Counted from the first letter of the stretch, positions 51,395 through 64,000 are shown. The stretch: 64,000 nucleotides of DNA from Nitrososphaerota archaeon (GCA_041641305.1 JBEPYN010000002.1:638666-702665), one strand, 5' to 3'. The notes: generated from the sequence alone by a model not told the origin. Made by a program: numbers and translations.

Positions 51395-52537
51395 TTGCCC
51401 CGCGACAGAAGATGGCTGCTTCTCTCATGGTTATTCGTCGACAGAATAGTCTACACCCTTAACTGGCTCGCAATCTCCCCCGCCCAACCCTTTCTCGCAA
51501 AAGAGCTGAACATCGGCCTCAGCGCGCTCGGAATACTCGGCACAGTTTTTCTCCTCGGTGTAGCTATTTTCCAGCTTCCCGCGGCGATTTTGGCCGCGCG
51601 TTATGGGGCAAAGAAGATAGCGTTGCTCGGGCTTTTTCTCTCCTCGTTTTTCGCGGGGTTGTGTGGCCTGGCCCCGGCTTTTGAGCATCTCCTAGTTCTC
51701 CGTTTCTTGACGGGTGTGTTTCTCAGTTTCTTCTTCGGGCCCGGCATCACGTTCTTCGCCCCTCTTTTCAGCACACGTGAAAGAGGAACAGCTGTCGGCG
51801 TCTATAACGCGGGTTTTCACACGGGGACGTTGGTGACGCTCGGTGTGTGGCCCACGGTGATGAGCCTGTATGGGTGGAGGCTTGGTTTACTTATTCCCGG
51901 TGTGGCTGGACTGTTGCTGGCTTTTGCTACTTACAGGGTGTCGAGATGGGTGGAAGACTCTGTTGACCCACATGGAATACATGTCTCAGCTATCGGAAAC
52001 AGGTTTGTTCTCTACTCTGCCCTCGGACTGGGGTTCGCTGGAGCCGCATGGTATCCGTTGACACAGTTCGGCATCCTATACCTAACAAGCGAGGCCAAGC
52101 TTGATGTGGGTGTTGCGGGTGCTATGGTTTCTGTGCTCTCACTGGGCAGTGTTGTTGGAGCACCGCTTTCCGGAAGGCTGTATGACAGGGCCCGAGACCG
52201 TAAGCGCCTCCTCTATCTCCTCAACCTATTCAACTCACTCTCCCTCGCGGCCTTCGCGCTCAGCCCCGTCCAAGCCATCATACCCATCGTTTTCCTAACA
52301 GGCCTCTTCTACACAGCCTCCAACAACCTCTACTATGTCACACCCATGATGGTTGTCAACCAGTCGGAGATCGCGGTAACCGTTGCAACCGTGAACATGG
52401 TGCATCTTTTCGCGGCCTCGGCCTTTCCGTATGTGTTTTCGGCTGTGGCTGAGGGCTGGGGATATTTCGCGGGATGGATGATGATGGTTTTTGTTAGTTT
52501 GTTGGCGGTGTTGTGTGTTTGGCGGATGAGGTTTTAA
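51395..52537 (+). CDS. MFS transporter
   Basis: 12-TM pattern, AARYGAKK motif A, ERGTAVG. Confidence 0.88.
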   Translation: MPRDRRWLLLSWLFVDRIVYTLNWLAISPAQPFLAKELNIGLSALGILGTVFLLGVAIFQLPAAILAARYGAKKIALLGLFLSSFFAGLCGLAPAFEHLLVLRFLTGVFLSFFFGPGITFFAPLFSTRERGTAVGVYNAGFHTGTLVTLGVWPTVMSLYGWRLGLLIPGVAGLLLAFATYRVSRWVEDSVDPHGIHVSAIGNRFVLYSALGLGFAGAAWYPLTQFGILYLTSEAKLDVGVAGAMVSVLSLGSVVGAPLSGRLYDRARDRKRLLYLLNLFNSLSLAAFALSPVQAIIPIVFLTGLFYTASNNLYYVTPMMVVNQSEIAVTVATVNMVHLFAASAFPYVFSAVAEGWGYFAGWMMMVFVSLLAVLCVWRMRF

Positions 52538-52566
52538 CCACTATGTAGTGGTGAAAGGGTTAAATA
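52537..52566 (+). promoter_or_regulatory. 7-2-7 palindrome ACCACTA-TG-TAGTGGT just upstream of BRE/TATA (TTAAATA)
   Basis: Palindrome 52537-52552; TATA 52560-52566; ATG 52589. Confidence 0.6.
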
Positions 52567-52588
52567 AAAACAACCACATCAAACAAAC

Positions 52589-53062
52589 ATGAACATCTTC
52601 GAGGAAGCCGAGGAGATAATGGAGAACGCCTTGGTCTCCTCCCTAAGCGTTGTAACACCCTCGGGGGAGGTGTTGACCAACCCGATGCTCCCCCTCTACA
52701 GCCGCAAACGCAAAAAACTCTACATGACATCCAGCATACTCTTCAGCAAGAAAATCAACTACATCAAAAAGAACCCAAGGGTCGGCGTGCTATTCAGCGG
52801 CCGACCATTCATCAAAACACCGAGATACTCCGCTCTCCACGTAAAAGGCGACGCAAAAGTCTACGAGGAAAACCTTCACAACGGCTGGGAATGGCTTGTG
52901 GAGCTATGGCGCGCCAAAGAACCATACATAGAGGCCTTCATCAAGCAGAGGGTTGCTCTGCCTCTTTTCTGGGAAAGAGCGGTGATCGAGATAGAGCCGA
53001 GAGAGATGCTGCTGTGGCCTGATGGCGATTTGTCTAAGGAGCCGCTGAGGTGGAGAGCATGA
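52589..53062 (+). CDS. PPOX-like split-barrel flavin/F420-binding protein
   Basis: LSVVTPSG..P, TS...SKK..IKKNPRVGVLF, VKGDAKV, IEIEP. Confidence 0.8.
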   Translation: MNIFEEAEEIMENALVSSLSVVTPSGEVLTNPMLPLYSRKRKKLYMTSSILFSKKINYIKKNPRVGVLFSGRPFIKTPRYSALHVKGDAKVYEENLHNGWEWLVELWRAKEPYIEAFIKQRVALPLFWERAVIEIEPREMLLWPDGDLSKEPLRWRA

Positions 53063-54381
53063 GCCTCGCAGCGGAGATCGAGAAATACAGTGACGTAGTC
53101 GTCTCCTACCTAGACGAAGACGGCTACCCGATGAGCTTCTCCACAACCGCGAGACAGAGCGACGGCAAACTCATCCTCGAAAAACCCCCACACATAAGCC
53201 CGCCCAAGAAAATAACAGTACTCCTAAACCACATAACCCCCCTCCCAACAGGAGGCTACACCGACAGAAGATACGTGATGATGAAGGGAGAGGCAGAGGC
53301 CGACGGCAACACAATAATCTTCAAGCCAACCAAGCAGTATGGCTGGGACGAGAAAACTAAACCATTTTTCCAATACTGTGAAGAAAGGGTTCCACAGGCG
53401 AAGAGTTATGTGACACGGTTGAGCGAGGCTTTGGGCAAGCAGGTCAAGCCTCGTCTCCCAACCCTCCAGCTCCTCTTCAGAGCGACACGGTTCCCATTCC
53501 TCACAGCAACCGCGGCACCCGTCCTCATGGGCGTAGGCACAGCAGCCTACCTCGGATACTTCGACCCACTCCTTTTCATCCTAACCCTGATAGGCGCGAG
53601 CCTGATACATCTCGCCCTCAACATGACCAACGACTACTACGACACAAAACTCGGAGCAGACCCCGCCAACATAACTCCAACACCCTTCAGCGGAGGCTCC
53701 CGAATACTTCACTACGGCCTAATGACACCGCGTCAACTACTATTACTAATCATACTCTTCTACGGCGCCGGCATAGCGATAGGCCTTTACCTCGCTTTTC
53801 TCAGGGGCCTCATCCCGATTCTGACGGTGATGGCAACAGGTGTCCTGATAAGCATCTTCTACACGGCTCCGCCTCTCAAGCTCGCCTACAGAGGTTTGGG
53901 CGAGGCCGCTGTCGGCATCGGCTTCGGACCAATAATCGTCCTCGGCAGCCACTATGTCCAGACACAGTTCTTCTCTCTCGAGGCCCTCGTCGCATCGATA
54001 CCCATAGGCATACTCATCATGCTCATTCTCTACGTCAACGAAATACCCGACGCACCATATGACAAAGCCGCCGGCAAACTCACATTGGTTACACGTCTCT
54101 CAAAAAAGGGCATGCTCAGAGGATACAAGGCATCTCTCGCGGCCGTCTACGTCGTGATGGTTGCAGCCGTATTGTTGAGGCTTGCTCCGCCAACAACCCT
54201 GATAGCCCTCGCAACAATCCCGAAAGCCGTCGCAACAGTTAGAAACGTTGCCCAGACATACGGCAACCCCTACCTAATGATTCCAGCCCTCGCCTCAAAC
54301 ATCAACGTCGCCACATTCACGGGACTTCTACACGCCGCAGGCTTCTTCCTCTGGGCGCTGATAAGCTACGTGATGGGCTAA
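53059..54381 (+). CDS. Fusion: split-barrel-like N-domain plus MenA/UbiA-family prenyltransferase
   Basis: N-terminal VSYLDEDGYP..KGEA..FKP; NDYYD, SGGSR, YTAPPLKLAYRGLGE, NEIPD..D..AGK.TL. ATGA overlap with previous gene. Confidence 0.85.
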   Translation: MSLAAEIEKYSDVVVSYLDEDGYPMSFSTTARQSDGKLILEKPPHISPPKKITVLLNHITPLPTGGYTDRRYVMMKGEAEADGNTIIFKPTKQYGWDEKTKPFFQYCEERVPQAKSYVTRLSEALGKQVKPRLPTLQLLFRATRFPFLTATAAPVLMGVGTAAYLGYFDPLLFILTLIGASLIHLALNMTNDYYDTKLGADPANITPTPFSGGSRILHYGLMTPRQLLLLIILFYGAGIAIGLYLAFLRGLIPILTVMATGVLISIFYTAPPLKLAYRGLGEAAVGIGFGPIIVLGSHYVQTQFFSLEALVASIPIGILIMLILYVNEIPDAPYDKAAGKLTLVTRLSKKGMLRGYKASLAAVYVVMVAAVLLRLAPPTTLIALATIPKAVATVRNVAQTYGNPYLMIPALASNINVATFTGLLHAAGFFLWALISYVMG

Positions 54382-54414
54382 ATCTATAAATCATATTGTT
54401 TGCAGACATTTTCT

Positions 54415-55491
54415 ATGGTTAAGAAAACTAGAGCAGGTAAACCCTCTTATGTAGGAACACTGCGTGGAAAAGATTTCCTCAACACCAACGACTTCACTCA
54501 GGAGCAGATTAACAACATTCTGAAGGCTGCTCGAGACCTGCGAGAAAAATTCCGGGCAAGGAAACCAACAGAGTATCTCAAGGGCCAGACGCTTTTCATG
54601 CTCTTCTACAACCGCTCCCTCCGCACGCGCAACAGCTTCGAGGCAGGCATCTATCAGCTGGGTGGTCACGCACATTTTCTCAGCCCATCAGACGTCTACA
54701 CGCCCACGCTGCCAGAAGACATGATACCATATCAGACAGAATCCATAGCTGACGTGGCCCGTGTTCTCAGCACATACGGCGACGCCATCGCCGTCAGGAT
54801 TTACGGCGACGCTGCGAAGTGGCACATCGGCAGGGGTCACCGGGTCATCCAAGAGTTCGCGAAATGGGCCACAATACCTGTCCTCAACATGGAGGATGAC
54901 ATATACCACCCGTTCCAAGCCCTCGCAGATATGATGGCTATACAGGATGTGGCCCCCAAGCCTCGGGGCAGGAAATTCGTCGTCTCCTACGCTTACTCAG
55001 GCGGCTTGAAGCCCCTCGCCGTGCCCCAGAGCTGCATACTCATAGGCACACAGTTCGCCATGGATGTCGTGCTCGCTCATCCACCGGGCTTCGAGCTCGA
55101 GGACCACGTCATAGAAGCATGCAGAAAAAACGTGGAACAATACGGCGGCTCCTTCACCATCACACATGACATGAAAGAAGCCTTCGAGGGAGCTGACTTT
55201 GTCTATCCAAAAGCCTGGTCGCCGCGGAAGTTCTTCCCACCATATAACTCGGCCGTGGACAAGGAGGGGGCCATGAAGTATCAGGACCAGTTCAAGAGCT
55301 GGATATGCACACCCGAGCTCATGGATTTGACCAACAGAGGTAAGTATATGCACTGCGGCCCCGCCGACAGAGGTCAGGAGGTTGTTGACGAGGTCATAGA
55401 CAGCCCCAGCTACTCGCTCTACTTCCAGCAGGCGGAGAACAGGCTGCATGTCCAGAAGGCGGTTATGTCGATGACGATGGGGAGAAGATGA
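54415..55491 (+). CDS. YgeW-like (knotted-type) carbamoyltransferase 1
   Basis: SLRTR, HPFQALAD, YAYS..KPLAVPQ, YPKAW, YMHCGPAD; TATAAA at 54385-54390. Confidence 0.85.
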   Translation: MVKKTRAGKPSYVGTLRGKDFLNTNDFTQEQINNILKAARDLREKFRARKPTEYLKGQTLFMLFYNRSLRTRNSFEAGIYQLGGHAHFLSPSDVYTPTLPEDMIPYQTESIADVARVLSTYGDAIAVRIYGDAAKWHIGRGHRVIQEFAKWATIPVLNMEDDIYHPFQALADMMAIQDVAPKPRGRKFVVSYAYSGGLKPLAVPQSCILIGTQFAMDVVLAHPPGFELEDHVIEACRKNVEQYGGSFTITHDMKEAFEGADFVYPKAWSPRKFFPPYNSAVDKEGAMKYQDQFKSWICTPELMDLTNRGKYMHCGPADRGQEVVDEVIDSPSYSLYFQQAENRLHVQKAVMSMTMGRR

Positions 55492-56516
55492 GAACCGGCG
55501 AAGACATCCTCGACCTCATAGGCAACACGCCGCTGCTACGTCTCCGCCAAATAGAGAAACAACATGGGGTGGATGCCGAGATATGGGCTAAGCTCGAGTT
55601 CTACAACCCATCCGGCAGCCTAAAAGACCGCATATACCGCGAGATGATAACGAAAGCCATCGAGAGGGGCGACCTGAGGCCCGGCATGGAGATTCTCGAG
55701 GTCTCGACAGGCAACGCGGGGATCGCATGCACCTTTGTCGGCACACATCTTGGTTACAAGGTTACCATCGTAATGCCCGAGGGAATGAGTGAGGAGAGGA
55801 AACAGCTCATAAGAGCGTTCGGCGGCAACCTCGTCTTCACACCCGGCGCAGAGTCTGACGTGGACCTCAGCCTAAGAAAAGCCGAGGAAATGATGCGGCA
55901 GAACCCGCGCAAATACTGGTTCCCCAACCAGTTCACAAACCCCGACAACATCCAAGCACACATCAAAACCACCGGCCCAGAGATATGGGAGCAGACAAAG
56001 GGCAAGGTTGATGCTTTCGTGATGTCGCAGGGCTCCGGCGGAACAGTAAGCGGCGTCGGAAAATTCCTCAAGGAAAAAAAGCCGAGCGTAAAGATATACA
56101 CAGTTGAGCCAAGCGAGGCACCCATCATCAGCGAAGGCAAATGGGGCTCGCACAAAATCGAGGGCATAGGAGACGGCTTCATACCACGCAACCTCGACCT
56201 CGGAGTATGCGACGGAGTTGTCACAACAACCTCCGACGAGGCAATTGCGATGGCCAAGCAGCTCGCACGCCTCGAGGGAATATTCGGCGGAATATCCTCG
56301 GGATGCAACGTCGCAGCCGCGGTCAAAGTCGCAAAAAAGCATCCAGAGCTCCGGAAAATAGTGACACTGATATGCGACTCGGGAAACAGATACCTCTCAA
56401 CGGAGTTGTATGGTGAGGGTAAGAAAACAGTTGTCCCCGAGCGTGAGCACCCCCTCGACGAATACACGAAAACCGTCAGGGAGAAACATTTGCACCGTCT
56501 CGAGATAATAAGGTGA
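55488..56516 (+). CDS. PLP-dependent cysteine synthase family (fold II) enzyme
   Basis: KLEFYNPSGSLKDR, STGNAG, NQF, GSGGT, HKIEGIG. Confidence 0.9.
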   Translation: MRTGEDILDLIGNTPLLRLRQIEKQHGVDAEIWAKLEFYNPSGSLKDRIYREMITKAIERGDLRPGMEILEVSTGNAGIACTFVGTHLGYKVTIVMPEGMSEERKQLIRAFGGNLVFTPGAESDVDLSLRKAEEMMRQNPRKYWFPNQFTNPDNIQAHIKTTGPEIWEQTKGKVDAFVMSQGSGGTVSGVGKFLKEKKPSVKIYTVEPSEAPIISEGKWGSHKIEGIGDGFIPRNLDLGVCDGVVTTTSDEAIAMAKQLARLEGIFGGISSGCNVAAAVKVAKKHPELRKIVTLICDSGNRYLSTELYGEGKKTVVPEREHPLDEYTKTVREKHLHRLEIIR

Positions 56517-57021
56517 GCATGTTATAGCGGGGTTCGAATACGACGAAGAGCATGGAACTGTCCAAGACCCTGTACTCGGAGGCAGGGTTCTTGTGCTGTC
56601 TGGGAGGCTTTTCGCTGAGATGAGGGTTCTTCTCTCTTACTCTATGTCGGGGCCCGCGGTGGACACCCTGTTGTGGCACATCGGAAACAAATATGGTGTG
56701 GCGTTGGGCAGGAGAACAAAGAAGATGTCGAAAACTCCGGGGGATGCTGTGGAGCTTTTGGCGAAGGCGGCTCAAAGGTCGGGCTGGGGCAAGATAACGG
56801 TCGACAACAAATTCGAAACGGCTGGTGAGATGGTGGTATTCTTCGAGGACTGTGTCTTCTGCGAGGGCGTGGTCGGCGAAAAAACACCCGCCTGCAGTTT
56901 TCTATCAGGTATTCTCGCTGGTATAGGGGAGGAGATATACGGCGGAAGTGTAGTGGCTCGGGAGGAGCTTTGCAGAGGTGTGGGTGACAGCCTCTGCCGC
57001 TTCAGGATAACAAAGGTGTAG
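56512..57021 (+). CDS. V4R small-ligand-binding domain protein; start ambiguous (first canonical start GTG 56593)
   Basis: GWG, C.FC, ACSFLSGILAG, E..CRG.GD..CRF. The frame stays open and coding-like back to 56512. Confidence 0.8.
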   Translation, partial: GEHVIAGFEYDEEHGTVQDPVLGGRVLVLSGRLFAEMRVLLSYSMSGPAVDTLLWHIGNKYGVALGRRTKKMSKTPGDAVELLAKAAQRSGWGKITVDNKFETAGEMVVFFEDCVFCEGVVGEKTPACSFLSGILAGIGEEIYGGSVVAREELCRGVGDSLCRFRITKV

Positions 57022-57025
57022 AGGC

Positions 57026-58270
57026 TTGTTTGTCGAAAAAATGGTCTGCTCAAGATGTGGAACAGAATACAGCCCATCCATCAACCCAATCCTCTGCAGA
57101 AACAACGACAACGGCCGCCTAGACATCTTCTACGACCTTGACCGCGTTGCCGGGTCATTCACCAAGTCCTCTATTGAGAAACGTCCGCCGAACGGTGTTT
57201 GGCGCTACTGGGAGCTCATGCCCGTCGACCAGCGTTATGCTTCTCCTCTGAAAGAGGGTAACACGCCTCTGCTCCATGCCCAACGGCTCGGCGAAGAACT
57301 TGGCGTCAAGAAGCTTTTCCTCAAGGATGAGACACGTAATCCCACGGCTTCTTTCAAAGACCGTGCGATGGCTGTTGGCGCCGCGAAGGCTGTTGAAATG
57401 GGTAGGAGGGATGTGGTCATCGCCTCGAGCGGTAACGCGGCATCTTCTCTGGCCGCTTACAGCGCCTCTCTTGGTCTACGGTGCACAGCCTTTGTACCAG
57501 AAGATGTTGCCATCGGAAAGGCCTCGCAGCTTCTGCTTTATGGTGCGAGAGTTCTCCGGGTCAAGCAGGTGGAGGAGGGACGTGACCCAACTGTAGACCT
57601 GATGATGCAGACAGTGAGAGAGCTTGGCTGGTATCCCTGCCCAAGCTTCGGCGCCTTCAACCCCTACCAGGTCGAGGGCCCCAAAACCATCGTCTATGAA
57701 ATGGTTGAGCAAATGGGCTGGAATGTTCCCGACTTTGTCTTCATACCCACAGGCTCAGGATGCCTCGCCACAGGAATATGGAAAGCGTTGAAAGAGATGC
57801 ATCAGCTCGGCTTAATCGAGAGCTATCCCAAGATGGTGCCTGTCCAGCCCACTGGTAACATGCCCCTCGTGAGAGCAATTCTTCAGGGGAAAAAGTTTGA
57901 GGAGATAGAGCCGGAGAAATGGCCCAAATCTATTGCGTCAGGTCTTCTCGACCCATATCCTTGGGACGGTGACGCGGCGATGGCGGGTGTGAGGACAACA
58001 GGTGGCACGGCCGCTGCCGTCGAAGAGTATGAGATTAGAGAGGCTGTAAAGAGGCTGGCCCGTCTTGAAGGGGTTTTTGCCGAGCCATCAGGCGCCGTCG
58101 GAGTGGCCGCTGTCCAGAAACTCCTTGATCAAGGGGTTGTAGAAGCCTCGGACACGGTGGTTGTTCTGGTGACTGCCTCGGGGCTGAAAGAACCGGAGAA
58201 AGTTGCCTCCACAGCCGAGCTTCCGCTCATACGCCCCTCTCTGAGTGAGCTGAAGAAGTATTTATCATAG
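57026..58270 (+). CDS. Threonine synthase-like PLP enzyme (fold II)
   Basis: N-terminal CxxC, EGNTPL, KDETRNPTASFKDR, ASSGN, PTGSG, AEPSGA. Confidence 0.88.
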   Translation: MFVEKMVCSRCGTEYSPSINPILCRNNDNGRLDIFYDLDRVAGSFTKSSIEKRPPNGVWRYWELMPVDQRYASPLKEGNTPLLHAQRLGEELGVKKLFLKDETRNPTASFKDRAMAVGAAKAVEMGRRDVVIASSGNAASSLAAYSASLGLRCTAFVPEDVAIGKASQLLLYGARVLRVKQVEEGRDPTVDLMMQTVRELGWYPCPSFGAFNPYQVEGPKTIVYEMVEQMGWNVPDFVFIPTGSGCLATGIWKALKEMHQLGLIESYPKMVPVQPTGNMPLVRAILQGKKFEEIEPEKWPKSIASGLLDPYPWDGDAAMAGVRTTGGTAAAVEEYEIREAVKRLARLEGVFAEPSGAVGVAAVQKLLDQGVVEASDTVVVLVTASGLKEPEKVASTAELPLIRPSLSELKKYLS

Positions 58271-58287
58271 AGAAAACAGGATTCGCC

Positions 58288-59244
58288 ATGAACAGAAGCG
58301 AGCTCATCGTTGTGGCTCTCGGTGGAAATGCGCTTCTGAGACGCGGTGACAAGGGCACTTTTGAGGAGCAGTATAGAAACGTCGGCAACGCGGCAAAGTA
58401 TCTCGCAGACATCGTCGAAGCAGGCCATCGACTAGTCATCACCCACGGCAACGGCCCACAGGTCGGAGCCACTCTTCTCCGCCACGACGCCGGTCAAAAG
58501 CTGCACAACATACCCGCCTTCCCCATGGATGCCTGCGGAGCAGAGACACAGGGCTTCATAGGCTACATCATACAGCAAAACCTCCGCAACGAGCTCAAGC
58601 GACGCGGCATCGACAAATACGTCATAACCGTCGTGACACGTGTAATCGTCGACAAAAACGACCCAGCGTTCAACAACCCAACCAAACCCATCGGCCCATT
58701 CTACAAAAAAGAAGAGATGGAGAAAATCAAGGCAGAGCACCCTGAATACATCTTTGTCGAGGACAAGGCACGAGGAGGCTGGAGAAGAGTGGTGCCGTCA
58801 CCCGACCCAAAAATCATCGCCGAGAGACATGCGATAAGGAAGCTTGTTGACGAAGGGTTCATAGTTGTGGCAAGCGGCGGAGGCGGAATACCGATAGTTG
58901 AAGAAAACGGCAAAGCATATGGAGTGGAGGCTGTAATCGACAAAGACCTCGCCGGCGAGAGGCTCGCCGAATTAATCGGGGCGGACCGGTTCATCATTCT
59001 GACGGATGTCGACGGAGCCTACCTAAACTTTGGAAAACCCGACCAGAAGAAGCTGGAGAAAGTGTCAGCGGCTGAGGCGAGGCGCTACCTCGAGCAGGGA
59101 CATTTCGGCTCAGGCTCGATGCTTCCCAAGGTGTTGGCTTGCATTAGGTTCATCGAGGCAGGCGGCAAAGAGGCAGTGATTGCCGAGCTTTCTCAATTTA
59201 AAGAAGCTTTGAAAGGCTCGGCGGGAACCCACTTTATTCCCTAA
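58288..59244 (+). CDS. arcC: Carbamate kinase
   Basis: ALGGNAL, THGNGPQVG, PTKPIGP, RRVVPSP, GGGGIP, EAVIDKD, GSMLPK. Confidence 0.96.
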   Translation: MNRSELIVVALGGNALLRRGDKGTFEEQYRNVGNAAKYLADIVEAGHRLVITHGNGPQVGATLLRHDAGQKLHNIPAFPMDACGAETQGFIGYIIQQNLRNELKRRGIDKYVITVVTRVIVDKNDPAFNNPTKPIGPFYKKEEMEKIKAEHPEYIFVEDKARGGWRRVVPSPDPKIIAERHAIRKLVDEGFIVVASGGGGIPIVEENGKAYGVEAVIDKDLAGERLAELIGADRFIILTDVDGAYLNFGKPDQKKLEKVSAAEARRYLEQGHFGSGSMLPKVLACIRFIEAGGKEAVIAELSQFKEALKGSAGTHFIP

Positions 59245-60260
59245 ATTTTTCCAGCCACCAAAGAAAGTATAGCCGCTCTTACATAAAGTAGGTTCTCGGC
59301 CTGGTCATAGATAACGCTTCGCGGCCCATCCATGACATCGTCGTCAGCCTCCTGTCCACGGAACACGGGGAGCACATGCGTCACTATACCATGCCGCGAC
59401 ATGAGGTCTGTCAACTCACGTGTAAGCTTCCAATCCCTGTATTTATTGTGCAACTCGATTTCTCTTTCCCGGCCGAACCTGTTCATCCCCGTGATTACGC
59501 ATTCGTGGCTTGCCCAGCTTCGTGGAAAAACTGCATCCGCGTTCTCGAGAGCCTCTTTGTAGCTGTGGCTGATGGTCAGGGAGCCGCCGCTCTCTTCAGC
59601 ATTTTTCTTAGCGAGCTTCACAAGGTTCTCGTCTATGTCGAAGCCGGGGGGATAAGCGAGGACAACATCCATACCGTAACGTGTGGCTATCAGCATCTCA
59701 TCCTGTATGCTTCCCCAGCTCCGGACCTTGTCGCTATAAGCCCACATCAAAACATACTTCTTCTTCTCAACACGTCCCAGCTTCTCCCGCAAGGTGTAGA
59801 GATCTGTGATGGCCTGGCTCGGGTGAAACATGTCGTCAGCCATGTTGATGACAGGGATTTTCGCATGCTCGGCATATTCTCTGATGACAGCGTTCCCCCT
59901 CCCATAAACATAGTCCACAGCTGACTCCAGTATCCTTACGCCGAGGACGTGGCCCAGCCTCTCATACATCTTGGCTATGTCTTTTACAGATTCGCCTTCG
60001 GCGCCTCGGGTGGTTGCGAAGTCGATGAACTGTGCATGGCCTCCGAGCATGGTTGCAGCGGCCTCGAAGCTGGCCCGCGTTCGCGTGCTGGTGTTGTAGA
60101 AGAGCATGAACATGGTCCTGTTCTTGAAAAGCTCGGGAACGTTTCCAGCCGCCCTCGCTATCTTCAGGCTCCGCGCCAAATCCATCGCCGCATCAATTTC
60201 CTCAATACTCCAGTCCTGCGAAGAAATCAGGTCCCTACCATAAAGCTCCGTCAGAGTCAT
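59241..60260 (-). CDS. YgeW-like carbamoyltransferase 2 with HVLP in place of HCLP
   Basis: STRTR, GRGNAVIRE, HPSQAITD, MWAYS, FPRSW, THVLPVFRG, QAEN. Confidence 0.85.
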   Translation of the reverse strand: MTLTELYGRDLISSQDWSIEEIDAAMDLARSLKIARAAGNVPELFKNRTMFMLFYNTSTRTRASFEAAATMLGGHAQFIDFATTRGAEGESVKDIAKMYERLGHVLGVRILESAVDYVYGRGNAVIREYAEHAKIPVINMADDMFHPSQAITDLYTLREKLGRVEKKKYVLMWAYSDKVRSWGSIQDEMLIATRYGMDVVLAYPPGFDIDENLVKLAKKNAEESGGSLTISHSYKEALENADAVFPRSWASHECVITGMNRFGREREIELHNKYRDWKLTRELTDLMSRHGIVTHVLPVFRGQEADDDVMDGPRSVIYDQAENLLYVRAAILSLVAGKI

Positions 60261-60314
60261 AATCACATCGATTCAGACGGCAATTTATACATCGCGTTCC
60301 ACCAGACCTTATCT

Positions 60315-60719
60315 TTACGCCTCTTCAGGGGAGGATGTGCCGCGGCCTAAAATGTTGAACGCATCCTTCAGAACCACATCTCTCCCAATAGCCTCCATAG
60401 CCAAAGGCGTCTTCAGCCTTCTCTGCCTCTCAAACTCGCGAAGCGTCAAGGGTATTATCTCGAGACTTGGAAATTTTTTCAAAACCTCCACGACCTGCTC
60501 AAACCTGTTAAGAGGATTTGGATCAAACCTTGGGGACACCACAAGTAGGTCTACATCGCTCCACTGGTTAAAGTCTCCTCTCGCATATGAGCCAACCACT
60601 GCCGCGGAAACAGGGCCCACAATCTTTTCAACCAACCTAACAGCTTCCGCAGCTGCTGCAACAGCCATCCTCCTCATCATCTCTCTTTCCTCAACAACTC
60701 CCATCTCATCCTCACCCAA
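60315..60719 (-). CDS. Minimal nucleotidyltransferase (MNT)
   Basis: GSYARGD..WSDVDLLVV. Confidence 0.9.
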   Translation of the reverse strand: MGEDEMGVVEEREMMRRMAVAAAAEAVRLVEKIVGPVSAAVVGSYARGDFNQWSDVDLLVVSPRFDPNPLNRFEQVVEVLKKFPSLEIIPLTLREFERQRRLKTPLAMEAIGRDVVLKDAFNILGRGTSSPEEA

Positions 60720-61087
60720 CCCAAAACATTCTCAGCCCTCTTAATGGCCTCGGCCGCCTCATTTTCAGAAAAATATTCCTCGGGCATGCCCGATTCCCAG
60801 ACATCAGGATACCTTGTAGAAGTGTAGTATTTGTCGAGCCTCAAACAGTCTTCAAGAATTTTCTCGTCACCGCCGGCTATGCTTTCCAAAGCTTCATACA
60901 GTTTTTTGAGGCTGTGGCCGTAGCGTGGGTTGCCACAACCCCAGAGAAGTGCTTTCAATGCCTTTTCGGCTGCCTGATGCGATTTGAAGCATGCCCAGTT
61001 ATAGTCTCCAGCCTTTAGGTCTTTCACGGCTGAGTTTAGGGTTGTTGAAGCGCTTGCCATCCATCTACTGTATTCTTCTTCGTCCAC
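60677..61087 (-). CDS. HEPN domain protein (HEPN-MNT pair)
   Basis: WACFKSHQAAEKALKA, GHSL, LDKYY..TRYPD. Confidence 0.9.
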   Translation of the reverse strand: MDEEEYSRWMASASTTLNSAVKDLKAGDYNWACFKSHQAAEKALKALLWGCGNPRYGHSLKKLYEALESIAGGDEKILEDCLRLDKYYTSTRYPDVWESGMPEEYFSENEAAEAIKRAENVLGWVRMRWELLRKER

Positions 61088-61139
61088 GTTGGTGCACCCT
61101 GCTCATTATGGTTGAGGAGGTATTTACATCTGTGCTGTC

Positions 61140-63464
61140 TTACTGTCGGTTTTTGTGAAGTTCTTCAAGCACTCGTTGAGGTGTGAGCGGGAGCTCGCGT
61201 ATGTAGACGCCTGTGGCGTTTGCAACGGCTGCTGCTATCGAGGCAGCTGGGAGAACTACGGGTATCTCTCCCATGGCTTTGGCTCCGAAGACACCTATGC
61301 TGCCCTTAACCTCGACGATGATGCTGCGGATTTCTTCGGGGGCGTCTGAGGCAGTTGGGATGACGTATGTGTGCAGGTTTGGGTTGATGACGACGCCGTC
61401 GTCGTGGACAATCTTCTCCATCAACGCATATCCCTGGCCCATGATGCTTCCCCCCTCGTAGACAGCGATCAGCCCCAGCGGGTTTATCGCGCGGCCCACA
61501 TCGTATGCGGCGGTTAGCCTATCCACCCTGACCACACCTGTCTCGGTGTCCACTGTTACCTCGGCGACGAGTGCACCGTAGGTGTACTGGTTGTATGGTG
61601 CTCCCTGACCTGTCTCAGGGTCCCACTTGGTCGACGGAGCCAAGTAGTAGCCGACCGCCCGGAGCGAAAGATTCTCCTCGAAACACTGGTTGACCACCTC
61701 ATGCCAGGACACCGACCTTCCGTTAGCCGTCACCAAGCCATCCCTAAACTCTAGGTCAGATGGATTGGCTGAGAGCATTTTGGCGGCGACTTGTGCAACT
61801 GTTGCCCTTATTTTGAGCGCTGCGTCGAGGGCTGCCTGGCCGCCTATTACGGTTGTCCGGGATGCGACGGTGGGCCCTGCGTTGGGGACGGCCGCTGTGT
61901 CCGGTCTCTCAAGCCTAACCATGGAGAGTGGAAGCCCGAGTGTTTCGGCGGTGACTATGGCGAGTGATGTCAGGGCCCCTGTTCCGTATTCGGTTAAACC
62001 TGTTTGGACAACGACTTTTCCGTCTCTCTCGACGTAGGTGACTACTGTTGCGAAGTCGTCGCCCTCTGGTCCGAGGGTGTTGCCGTGGTAGAGCATCGCT
62101 ATCCCGATGCCTTTTTTCAAGACCTTGTTCAATCTGTTAAACTCCTGTATCTCTTTTACACGTTTCTCCCACTCGCTTGCCTCGACTGCTTTTTGGTAAC
62201 ATTTCAGGAGGCCGTCGTCTTCGATTTTCTGACTTGTTGATGTGAGAGAGCCGGGACGGAGCATGTTCATCTCACGTATCTCGAGGGGTGTGAGGCCAAG
62301 CTCCTCCGCAAGCTCGTTCATCACCGTCTCGGCTGCGAAATGTGCCTGCGGTGCCCCGAAGCCACGTGTCGAGCCTGCCATCGTGTTGTTGGTGAGGACG
62401 CAGTAGCCGTCGGCCCAGACATTCGGGACCTCATATGGTCCTGTGCAGTGGAACGTGGCTCGTCCGATGACGAGGTGTCCCTTGGAGATGTATGCTCCCG
62501 TGTCCTCTAATAGTGTTGACTTCCAGGCCAAAAGTTTCCCATCATTCCTGGCTCCAACCATGTTTGTTATCTCGAAGGGGTGGCGTTTGCACTGGACCGT
62601 CATGGCTTCGCTGCGGGTGAACGCGGCGAGAGCAGGCTTTCCCGTGTAATATGTTGCGAGACATGCATATGCCGCCACGTCTATCGGTGTTTCGTCGCTT
62701 TTTGGGCCAAAGCCTCCGCCGGTGGCCGCTTGGATAACGCGGAGCCTGTCACCGGGTACACCGAGTATCTTTACCGCTTTGTTGTATACATCGTAGAGGT
62801 TCTGCATCGAGGATATACACGTTATCTTTCCATCCGGCTCCATGAAAGAGTAGGCTATCTCTATCTCGAGGGGTAGGCCTGTGATGAACTGTGTGCGGTA
62901 TGTTCGCTCGATGATGACGTCGGATTCTCTGAACCCTTTCTCCACGTCACCTTTTCTTATCTTGAAGTGTGTGACCACGTTGTCCCTGTCCTGTATTCTT
63001 GGGGCGTCGGGCTTCATGGCTTCGCGTGGGTTGGTTACAACGGGGAGTGGGTCGTAGTCGACTTCTACATGTTCAGCCGCTTCCTCCGCATCCTCCAGAC
63101 TCTCCCCAACCACGAGAGCAACAGCCTCCCCGATATGTCTAACCTTTTCATAAGCCAGCAGGGGTCTATCGCTTATCAGGCTTCCCGCATCGTTCACGCC
63201 TGGTATGTCACGGTGTGTGAGCACCTTGACGACACCTTTTCTAGATGCGGCTGGAGATGTGTCTATTTTCCTTATGTAGCCGTGGGGAACCTTGGAGCGC
63301 ACGGCTTTGACGTAGAGAGTTTTTCCTGAGACGAGGTCGGCTGTGTAAAGTGGTTTGCCGAGGACCGCGTCGAGAGCGTCAACACGTGCAACCTTCTTCC
63401 CGACTATGAGGAACTCGCGGGCCTCGATAATCTCCCTGAAACGTCTAGCTATCTCCTCGCTCAT
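61140..63464 (-). CDS. Xanthine dehydrogenase family molybdopterin-binding subunit
   Basis: GGGFGPK, KRHP, RGFGAPQ, TVASR, GRAINP, KAMGE. Confidence 0.92.
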   Translation of the reverse strand: MSEEIARRFREIIEAREFLIVGKKVARVDALDAVLGKPLYTADLVSGKTLYVKAVRSKVPHGYIRKIDTSPAASRKGVVKVLTHRDIPGVNDAGSLISDRPLLAYEKVRHIGEAVALVVGESLEDAEEAAEHVEVDYDPLPVVTNPREAMKPDAPRIQDRDNVVTHFKIRKGDVEKGFRESDVIIERTYRTQFITGLPLEIEIAYSFMEPDGKITCISSMQNLYDVYNKAVKILGVPGDRLRVIQAATGGGFGPKSDETPIDVAAYACLATYYTGKPALAAFTRSEAMTVQCKRHPFEITNMVGARNDGKLLAWKSTLLEDTGAYISKGHLVIGRATFHCTGPYEVPNVWADGYCVLTNNTMAGSTRGFGAPQAHFAAETVMNELAEELGLTPLEIREMNMLRPGSLTSTSQKIEDDGLLKCYQKAVEASEWEKRVKEIQEFNRLNKVLKKGIGIAMLYHGNTLGPEGDDFATVVTYVERDGKVVVQTGLTEYGTGALTSLAIVTAETLGLPLSMVRLERPDTAAVPNAGPTVASRTTVIGGQAALDAALKIRATVAQVAAKMLSANPSDLEFRDGLVTANGRSVSWHEVVNQCFEENLSLRAVGYYLAPSTKWDPETGQGAPYNQYTYGALVAEVTVDTETGVVRVDRLTAAYDVGRAINPLGLIAVYEGGSIMGQGYALMEKIVHDDGVVINPNLHTYVIPTASDAPEEIRSIIVEVKGSIGVFGAKAMGEIPVVLPAASIAAAVANATGVYIRELPLTPQRVLEELHKNRQ

Positions 63465-63916
63465 CTTCTTCTCACCTGTTTAAAGGCCTCTTCAAACCGT
63501 AAATAGCTGCCGCATCTACACAGCACGCTTCTGAGAGTATGTCTAATCTCCTCGCTGTCGGCGTCCGGGTTTGTGTCGTAGAGGTGTTTGAGGACGAGAA
63601 GGGCTGCTGGTATGCAGAAGCCGCACTGGACCGCGCCAAGGTCTATGAATGCTTGTTGAAGTGGGTGAAGCCGTGAGCCGTCCCCCATGCTCTCCACTGT
63701 CTTAATCTTGTGTCCCGAAGCTTGGTAAGCAAGCACCAGACATGAGTTGACAGGCTTGCCGTCGAGCAAAACTATGCATAGGCCACAGTCCCCAACTCCA
63801 CACCCCTCCTTAACGCTGACAAACCCCAGCTTCCCGCGGAGAACATCACTCAACCTCTCATGTGGCTCGACATCGACAACATATTTCACATCATTAACCT
63901 CGAGCTCAGCCCTCAT
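63461..63916 (-). CDS. Xanthine dehydrogenase family 2x[2Fe-2S] subunit
   Basis: GCGVGDCGLC..NSCL, QCGFC, CRCG. Confidence 0.95.
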   Translation of the reverse strand: MRAELEVNDVKYVVDVEPHERLSDVLRGKLGFVSVKEGCGVGDCGLCIVLLDGKPVNSCLVLAYQASGHKIKTVESMGDGSRLHPLQQAFIDLGAVQCGFCIPAALLVLKHLYDTNPDADSEEIRHTLRSVLCRCGSYLRFEEAFKQVRRR

Positions 63917-63922
63917 CCATCC

Positions 63923-64000
63923 TCACCTCATCAAGTTTTGAAGAAGACGCTTAAGCAAAACACCCGCAGCCCTCCGGCGATACCATGAAGAAGCCAAAAC
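63923..64000 (-). CDS. 3' end of xanthine dehydrogenase family FAD-binding subunit (truncated by window edge)
   Basis: ...VLASSWYRRRAAGVLLKRLLQNLMR*, matching the (R)AS.xYR tail of CoxM/XdhB; directly upstream of the Fe-S gene. Confidence 0.75.
   Translation of the reverse strand, partial: VLASSWYRRRAAGVLLKRLLQNLMR

Follow-up and report, generated by a model that had tools for sequence, protein, structure and literature searches.

A candidate archaeal variant of the reductive urate pathway, with parts partly replaced, at a contig end of a Caldarchaeum-like archaeon

Background

In the reductive urate pathway, which was worked out in 2025 in gut bacteria, urate is reduced to 2,8-dioxopurine by XdhD-YgfM and dearomatised by YgfK, or by UacX in C. 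difficile, and SsnA and HyuA open the rings to give 2,3-diureidopropionate; YgeW then phosphorolyses one ureido group, from which YqeA makes ATP, YgeY hydrolyses the other, and YgeX converts diaminopropionate to pyruvate and ammonia (PMC12507026; bioRxiv 10.1101/2025.04.24.650524). ATP formation from diureidopropanoate by YgeW and YqeA has been shown (bioRxiv 10.1101/2025.04.24.650524). The published variants of the dearomatising reductase are YgfK, UacX and an F420-class luciferase-like oxidoreductase (F420-LLM), the last reported for Chloroflexota (PMC12507026). Neither founding paper mentions archaea (PMC12507026; bioRxiv 10.1101/2025.04.24.650524), and the later literature that we searched holds no extension of the pathway to them. 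Here we describe two facing gene units at positions 51395-64000 of a 64,000-nt stretch of DNA from a Nitrososphaerota archaeon (GCA_041641305.1 JBEPYN010000002.1:638666-702665), hereafter the window. We put at roughly 0.6 the probability that some half of an island for purine catabolism in a Caldarchaeum-like archaeon lies at the end of the window, and that the cluster amounts to an archaeal version, with some of its parts replaced, of the reductive urate (2,8-dioxopurine) pathway. As a prediction from sequence, this reading is well supported by the anatomy of the cluster, by phylogeny and by conserved genomic context.

With the E. coli route the locus and its genome share a molybdenum (Mo) enzyme of the xanthine dehydrogenase (XDH) family with its FAD subunit, a hydrolase of the SsnA clade beside a dearomatising reductase, a HyuA-type hydantoinase, a carbamoyltransferase (CT) beside carbamate kinase (CK), a terminal fold-II pyridoxal phosphate (PLP) enzyme, and purine deaminase and uptake genes nearby. 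They differ from it in that YgfK, YgeY and YgeX are missing, the reductase is of the F420-type LLM family, there are two CTs, both from outside the YgeW clade, an enzyme of the ThrC family stands in place of the diaminopropionate ammonia-lyase, the hydantoinase is unlinked and the host is an archaeon. The C. difficile system, with PydA-type UacX and the hydrolase UacY (PMC12507026), resembles some archaeal relatives of the cluster (Desulfurococcaceae, f52 and g13) in having a DHO_dh protein and a 4Fe-4S protein beside the SsnA-like hydrolase. In C. difficile, however, the ureido group is removed hydrolytically, with neither CT nor CK, whereas CK and a pair of CTs are retained in the archaeal clusters, and the genome of the window has an LLM protein rather than a UacX-like reductase.

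Results and discussion

The two gene units and their continuation

Proteins were called with Pfam and NCBIfam models, and all coordinates are those of the window unless a contig is named. The genes that a first-pass annotation had listed for the two units are all present at their places and convergent as it described. Its XDH-family enzyme holds for the complete 2Fe-2S and Mo subunits, whereas the FAD subunit is represented by its last 25 codons, because the window stops at the end of contig C2. The genes of immediate concern are the following.

54415..55491, + strand: CT1, a carbamoyltransferase of the acetylornithine carbamoyltransferase (AOTCase)/YgeW type; open reading frame (ORF) from 54400; Pfam OTCace_N, OTCace
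55488..56516, + strand: CysK-like fold-II PLP enzyme; TIGR01139 cysK
57026..58270, + strand: ThrC-like fold-II PLP enzyme; NF006050; SFKDR lysine motif
58288..59244, + strand: CK; TIGR00746 arcC
59241..60266, - strand: CT2, a second carbamoyltransferase; Pfam OTCace_N, OTCace
61140..63464, - strand: molybdopterin (Mo) subunit of an XDH-family hydroxylase/dehydroxylase; Pfam Ald_Xan_dh_C, MoCoBD_1, MoCoBD_2
63461..63916, - strand: 2Fe-2S subunit of the XDH-family enzyme; Pfam Fer2, Fer2_2
63923..64000, - strand: FAD subunit, last 25 codons, the remainder on contig C4

The genes of the plus-strand unit follow one another closely (gaps of -4 to 76 nt): CT1 runs 4 nt into the start of the CysK-like gene, and the convergent CK and CT2 genes also share 4 nt.

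The genome from which the window was taken (G000; 1.66 Mb in 4 contigs, 99.3% complete) allows the cluster to be followed further. Contig C4 (3.5 kb) continues C2, the end of the one and the start of the other lying 1 base apart in the independently assembled Logan contig L017, which carries an identical CT1. In turn, 127 nt at the end of C4 are shared with the reverse-complemented end of contig C3, and G018, a genome from the same genus that is assembled in a single contig, is colinear across the whole stretch. The continuation adds five genes.

contig C4, also L017: FAD subunit, full, 277 aa
contig C4, after the FAD subunit: SsnA-like amidohydrolase, 454 aa; best NCBIfam model SsnA
after the SsnA-like gene: luciferase-like oxidoreductase (LLM); best models all F420-class
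divergent from the LLM gene: adenine deaminase (Ade); TIGR01178 550, above the cut-off of 472.5
near Ade, past the window end: Bmp/PnrA-type ABC transporter

The first-pass annotation had proposed a look past position 64000 for amidohydrolases of the SsnA and HyuA types, a YgeY-type M20 enzyme and a nucleobase transporter. An SsnA-like hydrolase beside the XDH genes, a reductase, Ade and a Bmp-type ABC transporter are indeed found there, and the genome thus holds both kinds of ring-opening hydrolase, with the HyuA-type hydantoinase unlinked on contig C1; YgeY was not borne out. When E. coli proteins were compared with the whole genome by tblastn, SsnA had its best match in the C4 gene, YqeA matched the cluster CK with 46% identity, HyuA had two matches and the XDH subunits many, and YgeW matched CT2 and CT1 at 30-32% only. 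YgeX and YgfK gave no match in this search, and YgeY gave only weak matches to M20 proteins elsewhere in the genome. Arginine deiminase and agmatine deiminase, noted earlier as missing from the window, were not found anywhere in the genome, and the two deiminase pathways are therefore ruled out as sources of carbamoyl phosphate.

Uricase and a transthyretin-type hydroxyisourate (HIU) hydrolase were likewise not found in the genome. This bears on an allantoin-type alternative, in which urate would undergo oxidative ring opening and the two transferases would act phosphorolytically on allantoate, ureidoglycine or oxalurate, in the manner of ureidoglycine transcarbamylase (UGTCase) and oxamate transcarbamylase, to feed CK. 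There is precedent for such chemistry in Rubrobacter xylanophilus, where UGTCase, a pseudo-aspartate carbamoyltransferase (pseudo-ATCase) encoded beside CK, converts allantoate and phosphate to ureidoglycine and carbamoyl phosphate, and in 2013 two transferases were noted next to xdhABC and hyuA at a locus of Nocardioides (PMC4016543). The archaeal cluster would share with the Rubrobacter pair a non-canonical transcarbamylase that phosphorolyses a purine-derived ureide next to CK. In addition, an allantoinase/dihydroorotase-like protein (350 vs 358 bits) is encoded beside two tandem Mo subunits of other XDH paralogues on C2 (C2:110171-116149, L153). The Rubrobacter enzyme, however, is a pseudo-ATCase that acts on allantoate in an oxidative route, whereas the archaeal genome lacks both uricase and HIU hydrolase; the conserved partners of the cluster, SsnA, a dearomatising reductase and a hydantoinase, are markers of the reductive route; and in a route ending at glyoxylate the conserved PLP enzyme would have no obvious task. 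We therefore regard an allantoin-type pathway as very unlikely.

The carbamoyltransferases CT1 and CT2

Four transcarbamylase genes are present in the genome. Two are canonical, an ornithine carbamoyltransferase (OTC; NF001986 388, cut-off 306; TIGR00658 380; motifs VSMG and HCMP) and an aspartate carbamoyltransferase (ATC; 337, cut-off 237), and the other two are CT1 and CT2, which are 38% identical to one another. CT1 carries the motifs SLRTR, HPFQ, a proline-rich loop (KPLAVPQ), VYPKAWSP and HCGP; CT2 carries STRTR, HPSQ, VFPRSW and HVLP, and its corresponding loop is, as read from the sequence, without proline. In knotted transferases of the YgeW type it is the Pro-rich loop that forms the trefoil knot. 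The DxxxSMG ornithine motif is missing in both, and in both HCLP is altered. Each also falls below the cut-off of the OTC model TIGR00658 (CT1 229 and CT2 204, cut-off 281). From their motifs, CT1 and CT2 are predicted to be neither ornithine nor aspartate enzymes, and the finding that would have counted against the first-pass annotation, a plain OTC, is thus not seen.

By sequence they are not YgeW transferases either. On the YgeW models (TIGR03316/NF005538) CT1 scores 143-148 and CT2 151-159, far under the cut-offs of 453-500. The best model of CT1 is that of AOTCase (NF003384), on which it reaches 283.8 against a cut-off of 288 and CT2 reaches 223.7, and the best match of CT1 among known structures is AOTCase 3kzc (E 1e-63); for CT2 it is the Pyrococcus OTC, followed by AOTCase. 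In a tree of 71 sequences CT1 and CT2 each form a clade (SH-aLRT 97 and 98, respectively), which together with the Xanthomonadales AOTCases make up a trio that stands apart from the OTCs and whose branching order the tree leaves open. E. coli YgeW groups in this tree with the transferases of Chloroflexota and Actinomycetota clusters, and CT1 and CT2 lie outside that group. Because of this placement we describe them as transferases in a YgeW-like context that are not members of the YgeW family. Like the Xanthomonas AOTCase (PDB 3kzc), CT1 has an insert that follows the first strands, a Pro-rich loop, and K-[AS]-W in place of SMG. It differs in scoring just under the AOTCase cut-off, in forming a separate clade, in having HCGP rather than HCLP and in having purine-catabolic rather than arg neighbours.

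The SsnA-like hydrolase, the hydantoinase, the reductase and the Mo enzyme

The SsnA-like protein reaches 360 of the 444 and 332 of the 455.5 required by the two SsnA models (TIGR03314/NF005540). In a tree of 26 sequences the hydrolases of the archaeal clusters nevertheless form one clade (SH-aLRT 99) with a second copy from the genome of the window, E. coli SsnA and Chloroflexota SsnA, and this clade excludes DadD/GuaD-like paralogues. The second copy forms a pair with an F420-class LLM gene on contig C3 (C3:728-4497, L154); the two proteins are 35% and 49% identical to the cluster copies, a DadD/guanine-deaminase-like hydrolase is encoded next to them, and the pair may serve a parallel route for another base. 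In G018 the SsnA-like gene (L052 13515-14880) appears as a 410-aa ORF with a separate C-terminal fragment, reflecting a frameshift or an assembly error.

The HyuA-type hydantoinase on C1 exceeds the cut-off of the D-hydantoinase/dihydropyrimidinase model (TIGR02033 456, cut-off 393) and is 36% identical to E. coli HyuA. Its gene adjoins the XDH paralogue that is most like the one of the cluster (C1:32281-37286, L152), and hydantoinase orthologues lie inside the cluster in five relatives (G137, G172, L018, G398 and G258).

As to the reductase, no YgfK or UacX-like protein was found in the genome of the window, and the F420-class LLM gene stands beside the SsnA-like gene instead. Use of F420 is plausible because CofD and CofE are present, and both full synthesis of F420 and scavenging of FO would be compatible with the gene content. 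Relatives without the LLM gene (G240, G258, G318 and G398) have a DHO_dh protein and a 4Fe-4S protein, the architecture of PydA/UacX, next to the SsnA-like gene. In one of them (G398, Caldarchaeales genus g13; L060 11953-17974) two tungsten-type aldehyde ferredoxin oxidoreductase (AFOR) genes, each preceded by a 4Fe-4S gene and with the UacX-like reductase between them, lie between CT2 on the one side and the genes for the amidohydrolase and the ThrC-like enzyme on the other. There is no XDH gene nearby, and AFOR-family enzymes may therefore stand in for the Mo hydroxylase in that organism.

The substrate of the Mo enzyme is the point at which a second alternative arises, namely that the same logic is applied to another N-heterocycle, such as a pyrimidine, a hydantoin or a modified base, so that different ureides and a different amino-acid end product would be formed, on which the ThrC-like and CysK-like enzymes would act. 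The Mo subunit scores 509 on XdhA models with a cut-off of 780, and among known structures it is matched best by 4-hydroxybenzoyl-CoA reductase (320 bits), with bovine xanthine oxidase (303 bits) just behind. It keeps the equivalents of Arg880 and Glu1261 and has Ser at the position of Glu802, and this Ser, together with a best match to an enzyme that dehydroxylates benzoyl-CoA derivatives reductively, would suit a different heterocycle. So would the presence of nine XDH-family Mo-subunit genes in a genome of 1.66 Mb, the second SsnA-like and LLM pair, and the fact that CT1 and CT2 are not YgeW orthologues. Then again, kinship with a reductive dehydroxylase would also be compatible with an XdhD-like reduction; an adenine deaminase and a Bmp/PnrA-type ABC transporter flank the cluster both here and in several relatives; and the hydrolase falls in the SsnA clade. 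On these grounds we think it quite unlikely that the cluster serves a heterocycle other than a purine.

The PLP enzymes and the replacement of YgeX and YgeY

If the cluster degrades a purine, which enzymes would take the places of YgeX and YgeY? The first-pass annotation had put both PLP enzymes in the place of YgeX, and this is supported for the ThrC-like enzyme, by complementary distribution only, and is doubtful for the CysK-like one. The ThrC-like protein has the SFKDR lysine motif, scores 322 on NF006050 (cut-off 303) and 188 on TIGR00260 (cut-off 167), and is one of four ThrC paralogues in the genome, two of the other three scoring higher on TIGR00260. Its gene adjoins CT1, the SsnA-like gene or CK in nearly all of the archaeal and bacterial loci, and YgeX is never present. 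In the ThrC tree the archaeal and the bacterial cluster-linked clades are each supported. The CysK-like protein passes TIGR01139 (368, cut-off 351) and is best matched by cysteine synthase 2egu (E 1e-85); one CysM-like paralogue is found elsewhere in the genome. The CysK-like gene lies next to CT1 in f1, f2, f3 and L019, and this conserved place is the only hint of a role in the pathway, a role that is doubtful because the protein scores as an ordinary cysteine synthase.

Bacterial loci were collected by searching genome contigs with the CT1 alignment, and 80 loci were fetched among the matches listed, which were mostly distant bacterial OTCs and AOTCases. Six pathway genes were counted at each locus (CK, ThrC-like, SsnA-type, XDH, hydantoinase and YgeY). 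Among these matches, 53 of the 80 loci are ordinary OTC/AOTC loci with none of the six genes and serve as negative controls, and 10 loci combine a CT with CK and a ThrC-like gene. The 10 belong to Chloroflexota, Actinomycetota and one unclassified bacterium, and often add SsnA, HyuA, XDH, MocA, YqeB or Bmp. Seven of them have two CTs and no YgeY, the other three have one CT and a YgeY that is 41% identical to that of E. coli, and YgeX was found in none of the 10. That the second CT and YgeY exclude one another in these loci and that YgeX is absent supports a replacement of YgeY by the second CT and of YgeX by the ThrC-like enzyme.

These Chloroflexota and Actinomycetota loci resemble the archaeal one, with an F420-type LLM beside SsnA and with CT, CK, a ThrC-like gene and often a second CT. 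They differ from it in that their main CT belongs to the YgeW clade, their second CT is pseudo-ATCase-like and some keep YgeY. In the 71-sequence tree the second transferase of Chloroflexota lies near ATC and is not a relative of CT2, and the layout with two transferases therefore seems to have arisen more than once.

Conservation across archaea

For CT1, over 120 sequence clusters were found at 73-86% identity. Of 400 sampled genomes from the phylum, 41 carry a CT1 orthologue (at least 51% identical); they include every member of the family to which the window belongs, some members of three other Caldarchaeales groups, 14 out of 16 in family f7 and a handful besides. To judge from the source names, which are Thermosphaera sp., Desulfurococcus amylolyticus and Staphylothermus marinus, family f7 is the Desulfurococcaceae. 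CT2 mostly lies no more than about 5 kb from CT1, and about 26 kb off in part of f7. SsnA-like orthologues (E at most 1e-90) were found in 36 of the 41 genomes with CT1 and in none of the 359 without it. Since the sampled genomes are related and represent about 5-6 lineages, these counts show consistency rather than giving statistical proof.

The module of CT1, CT2, CK, ThrC-like and SsnA-like genes recurs in Caldarchaeales families, in Desulfurococcaceae, in f52, on a Bathyarchaeia-like contig and in some bacteria, and the neighbourhood, often with the Mo enzyme, is thus kept across several archaeal families, as the first-pass annotation had proposed should be looked at. Representative archaeal loci read as follows.

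G193: MFS, PNPOx, UbiA, CT1, CysK-like, ThrC-like, CK, CT2, XDH, SsnA-like, LLM; no HEPN-MNT
G137, G172, L018: CT1 close to LLM, SsnA-like, ThrC-like, HyuA-like and Ade
G398: CT1, HyuA-like and CT2, consecutive
G318: one block of ThrC-like, UacX-like, SsnA-like, CK, CT1 and CT2
G258: Ade, amidohydrolase, Bmp ABC, CT2, UacX-like, ThrC-like, CT1, CysK-like, XDH, HyuA-like

In a Thermosphaera-like member of the Desulfurococcaceae (G240; L063 10964-14655) the block from CT1 to the SsnA-like gene includes three extra genes that flank CK and encode a 306-aa protein without a Pfam match, a radical-SAM protein and an EamA-family transporter.

Carbamate kinase and the supply of carbamoyl phosphate

The single CK of the genome scores 430.7 on TIGR00746, above the cut-off of 358.25. 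In Pyrococcus and Thermococcus a carbamate kinase-like enzyme serves as an anabolic carbamoyl-phosphate synthetase, and the genome of the window resembles theirs as an archaeon without CarAB that has one CK beside transcarbamylases. It differs in that CK is embedded in what appears to be a catabolic ureide module, and the direction of its reaction is not fixed by this setting. We surveyed CK, carbamoyl-phosphate synthetase (CPSase) and CT1/CT2 in 75 genomes of the order.

f1, g13, g14: CK yes, CPSase no, CT1/CT2 yes
g162: CK yes, CPSase no, CT1/CT2 not assessed
g6: CK yes, CPSase no, CT1/CT2 not found
g5, g7, g8, g11: CK no, CPSase yes, CT1/CT2 no
g9, g12: CK yes, CPSase yes, CT1/CT2 yes (g12: CT1 in 1 of the 2 genomes sampled)
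g10: CK no, CPSase no, CT1/CT2 no

The CK gene of g6 adjoins a Bmp-type ABC transporter. CPSase was also not found in five complete genomes of Desulfurococcaceae.

These data are the main ground for a third alternative, in which the plus-strand unit is a biosynthetic island for carbamoyl phosphate and amino acids, with CK acting as the synthase, with ordinary CysK and ThrC enzymes, with CT1 and CT2 as anabolic transferases for some other acceptor, and with purine-related neighbours that are incidental. A genome that is 99.3% complete and has OTC and ATC but neither CarA nor CarB, the near complementarity of CK and CPSase across the order, the five Desulfurococcaceae genomes without CPSase, the occurrence of CK apart from CT1 and CT2 in g6, and CysK-like and ThrC-like scores above the NCBIfam cut-offs are all what such an island would predict. 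It would not readily explain, however, why CT1 and CT2, which lack the ornithine motif, exist beside a canonical OTC and ATC, or why a ThrC enzyme of this unit should be needed beside three further paralogues, two of which score better on TIGR00260. Moreover, SsnA-like orthologues are confined to genomes with CT1, the module is syntenic with SsnA, HyuA, UacX-like or LLM, XDH, Ade and Bmp genes in several phyla, and g9 and g12 have CPSase alongside CK, CT1 and CT2. A purely biosynthetic island thus appears unlikely.

The absence of CarAB, the complementarity of CK and CPSase and the presence of CK without CT1/CT2 in g6 do imply that CK may run anabolically, and in lineages without CPSase it probably has an anabolic role, as in Pyrococcus. 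Conservation of ATP from purine-derived carbamoyl phosphate is plausible as well. Since the genome is without CarAB, the same pool of carbamoyl phosphate must also feed the canonical OTC and ATC, and a shared pool that would serve both ATP formation and biosynthesis is to our mind the most interesting reading still standing. A more far-reaching version of it, possible but on balance doubtful, is that in Caldarchaeaceae and Desulfurococcaceae without CPSase the module is the cell's carbamoyl-phosphate hub, in which both ureido groups would be phosphorolysed by two transferases of clades of their own, carbamoyl phosphate would be split between a reversible CK, yielding ATP, and the formation of arginine and of pyrimidines, and an enzyme of the ThrC family would have been recruited as a new lyase for diaminopropionate or ureido-alanine.

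The proposed route and the points that weigh against it

If the cluster is an archaeal variant of the reductive urate pathway, purines would be imported and deaminated, and the Mo enzyme would set their oxidation pattern. The F420-dependent reductase would then dearomatise the ring in the role of YgfK/UacX, and the SsnA-like and HyuA-like hydrolases would open both rings to give 2,3-diureidopropionate. CT1 and CT2 would each phosphorolyse one ureido group, so that two carbamoyl phosphates are formed and CT2 replaces the hydrolase YgeY, and the ThrC-like enzyme would convert 2,3-diaminopropionate to pyruvate and ammonia in the place of YgeX. Finally, CK could use carbamoyl phosphate and ADP to make ATP. 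What we infer in this scheme are the substrates of the two transferases and of the ThrC-like enzyme, and which way CK runs. The core of the original proposal, an archaeal variant of the E. coli ygeW/ssnA/xdh system, has held up in the SsnA-like hydrolase, the reductase, the hydantoinase, the transferases other than OTC and the conservation; the transferases are not members of the YgeW clade, a role of the CysK-like enzyme is doubtful, and energy conservation through CK is plausible.

Several observations weigh against this route. CT1 and CT2 lie outside the YgeW clade and equally near AOTCase, the SsnA-like protein stays under the SsnA cut-offs (360 vs 444), and both PLP enzymes exceed curated cut-offs for threonine synthase and cysteine synthase. 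The ThrC tree leaves the cluster-linked clades unseparated from housekeeping paralogues, and neofunctionalisation is therefore not demonstrated by phylogeny. With Ser at the position of Glu802 and eight further XDH-family paralogues in the genome, the specificity of the Mo enzyme is not fixed by motifs. The hydantoinase is not inside this cluster, and CofH (FO synthase) was not found in the genome. CarA and CarB were not found in G000 either (TIGR01369, PF02787 and tblastn with E. coli CarA/CarB), in spite of its OTC and ATC; with this, the CK and CPSase distribution and the CK of g6 without CT1 or CT2, CK may run anabolically. The co-occurrence counts, lastly, come from roughly 5-6 independent lineages of related genomes.

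Neighbouring genes and occurrence of the organism

Four further features lie in or beside the two units.

51395..54381, + strand: major facilitator superfamily (MFS) transporter, PNPOx-like protein and UbiA/MenA-like prenyltransferase, 5' of CT1; Pfam
56593..57021, + strand: small V4R-domain protein, a possible ligand-binding regulator; Pfam V4R 51 bits
60315..60719, - strand: MNT-type nucleotidyltransferase, one half of HEPN-MNT; Pfam NTP_transf_2
60677..61087, - strand: HEPN-domain protein, the other half of HEPN-MNT; Pfam HEPN 109 bits

The HEPN and MNT ORFs overlap by 43 nt, and the pair separates CT2 from the XDH operon. Only this genus shows it, G018 keeping MNT together with fragments of HEPN and G193 being empty at this place, and to judge from this pattern it is an insertion outside the pathway. 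The V4R gene is also specific to the genus, with 75% identity in G018 and no counterpart in G193 or other relatives. The MFS protein is anion:cation-symporter-like, the PNPOx protein PNPOx/FDOR-like and the UbiA/MenA-like prenyltransferase long. The order MFS-PNPOx-UbiA 5' of CT1 is kept in three genera of family f1 (G018, G193, G105) and not beyond, and membership of these genes in the pathway is doubtful.

Near-identical stretches occur in contigs from several hot-spring metagenomes, and this DNA may come from one of them. Among about 3% of the raw reads of a hot-spring metatranscriptome (X21) none fell on the stretch, which says nothing on expression. Short contigs in an RNA library from a microbial mat (X20) match AtpB, CK and the XDH Mo/FeS genes with at least 99% identity, and none covers CT1, the CysK-like gene, the ThrC-like gene or CT2; as the contigs are unstranded and do not show transcription, they are only a hint of expression. 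Matches in a further library (X24) are partial and 90-95% alike, and were rejected as expression of this organism in favour of other organisms. The genome also encodes a eukaryote-type ubiquitin-conjugating E2 (UQ_con, 103 bits; G000 C1:261675-262073), which was found in 0 of 14 control prokaryote genomes and would fit a Caldarchaeum-like organism, as would the close homologues, whose NCBI names are those of Nitrososphaerota or Thaumarchaeota MAGs.

Conclusions

If our reading is correct, the cluster represents a route of anaerobic purine degradation in archaea that is not mentioned in the literature searched. The route would be modular, with alternatives at each of several steps: a Mo-containing XDH or possibly a tungsten-containing AFOR; YgfK, UacX or F420-LLM; a hydrolase or a transferase; and YgeX or a ThrC-like enzyme. 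Its archaeal form could give two carbamoyl phosphates, and hence up to two ATP, per purine rather than one, and in lineages without CarAB purine catabolism would be tied to how carbamoyl phosphate is supplied. A candidate function is also suggested for two widespread families that are annotated as 'ornithine carbamoyltransferase' and for a paralogue annotated as 'threonine synthase'. Since Desulfurococcus, Staphylothermus and Thermosphaera carry the module, these proposals are testable in culture.

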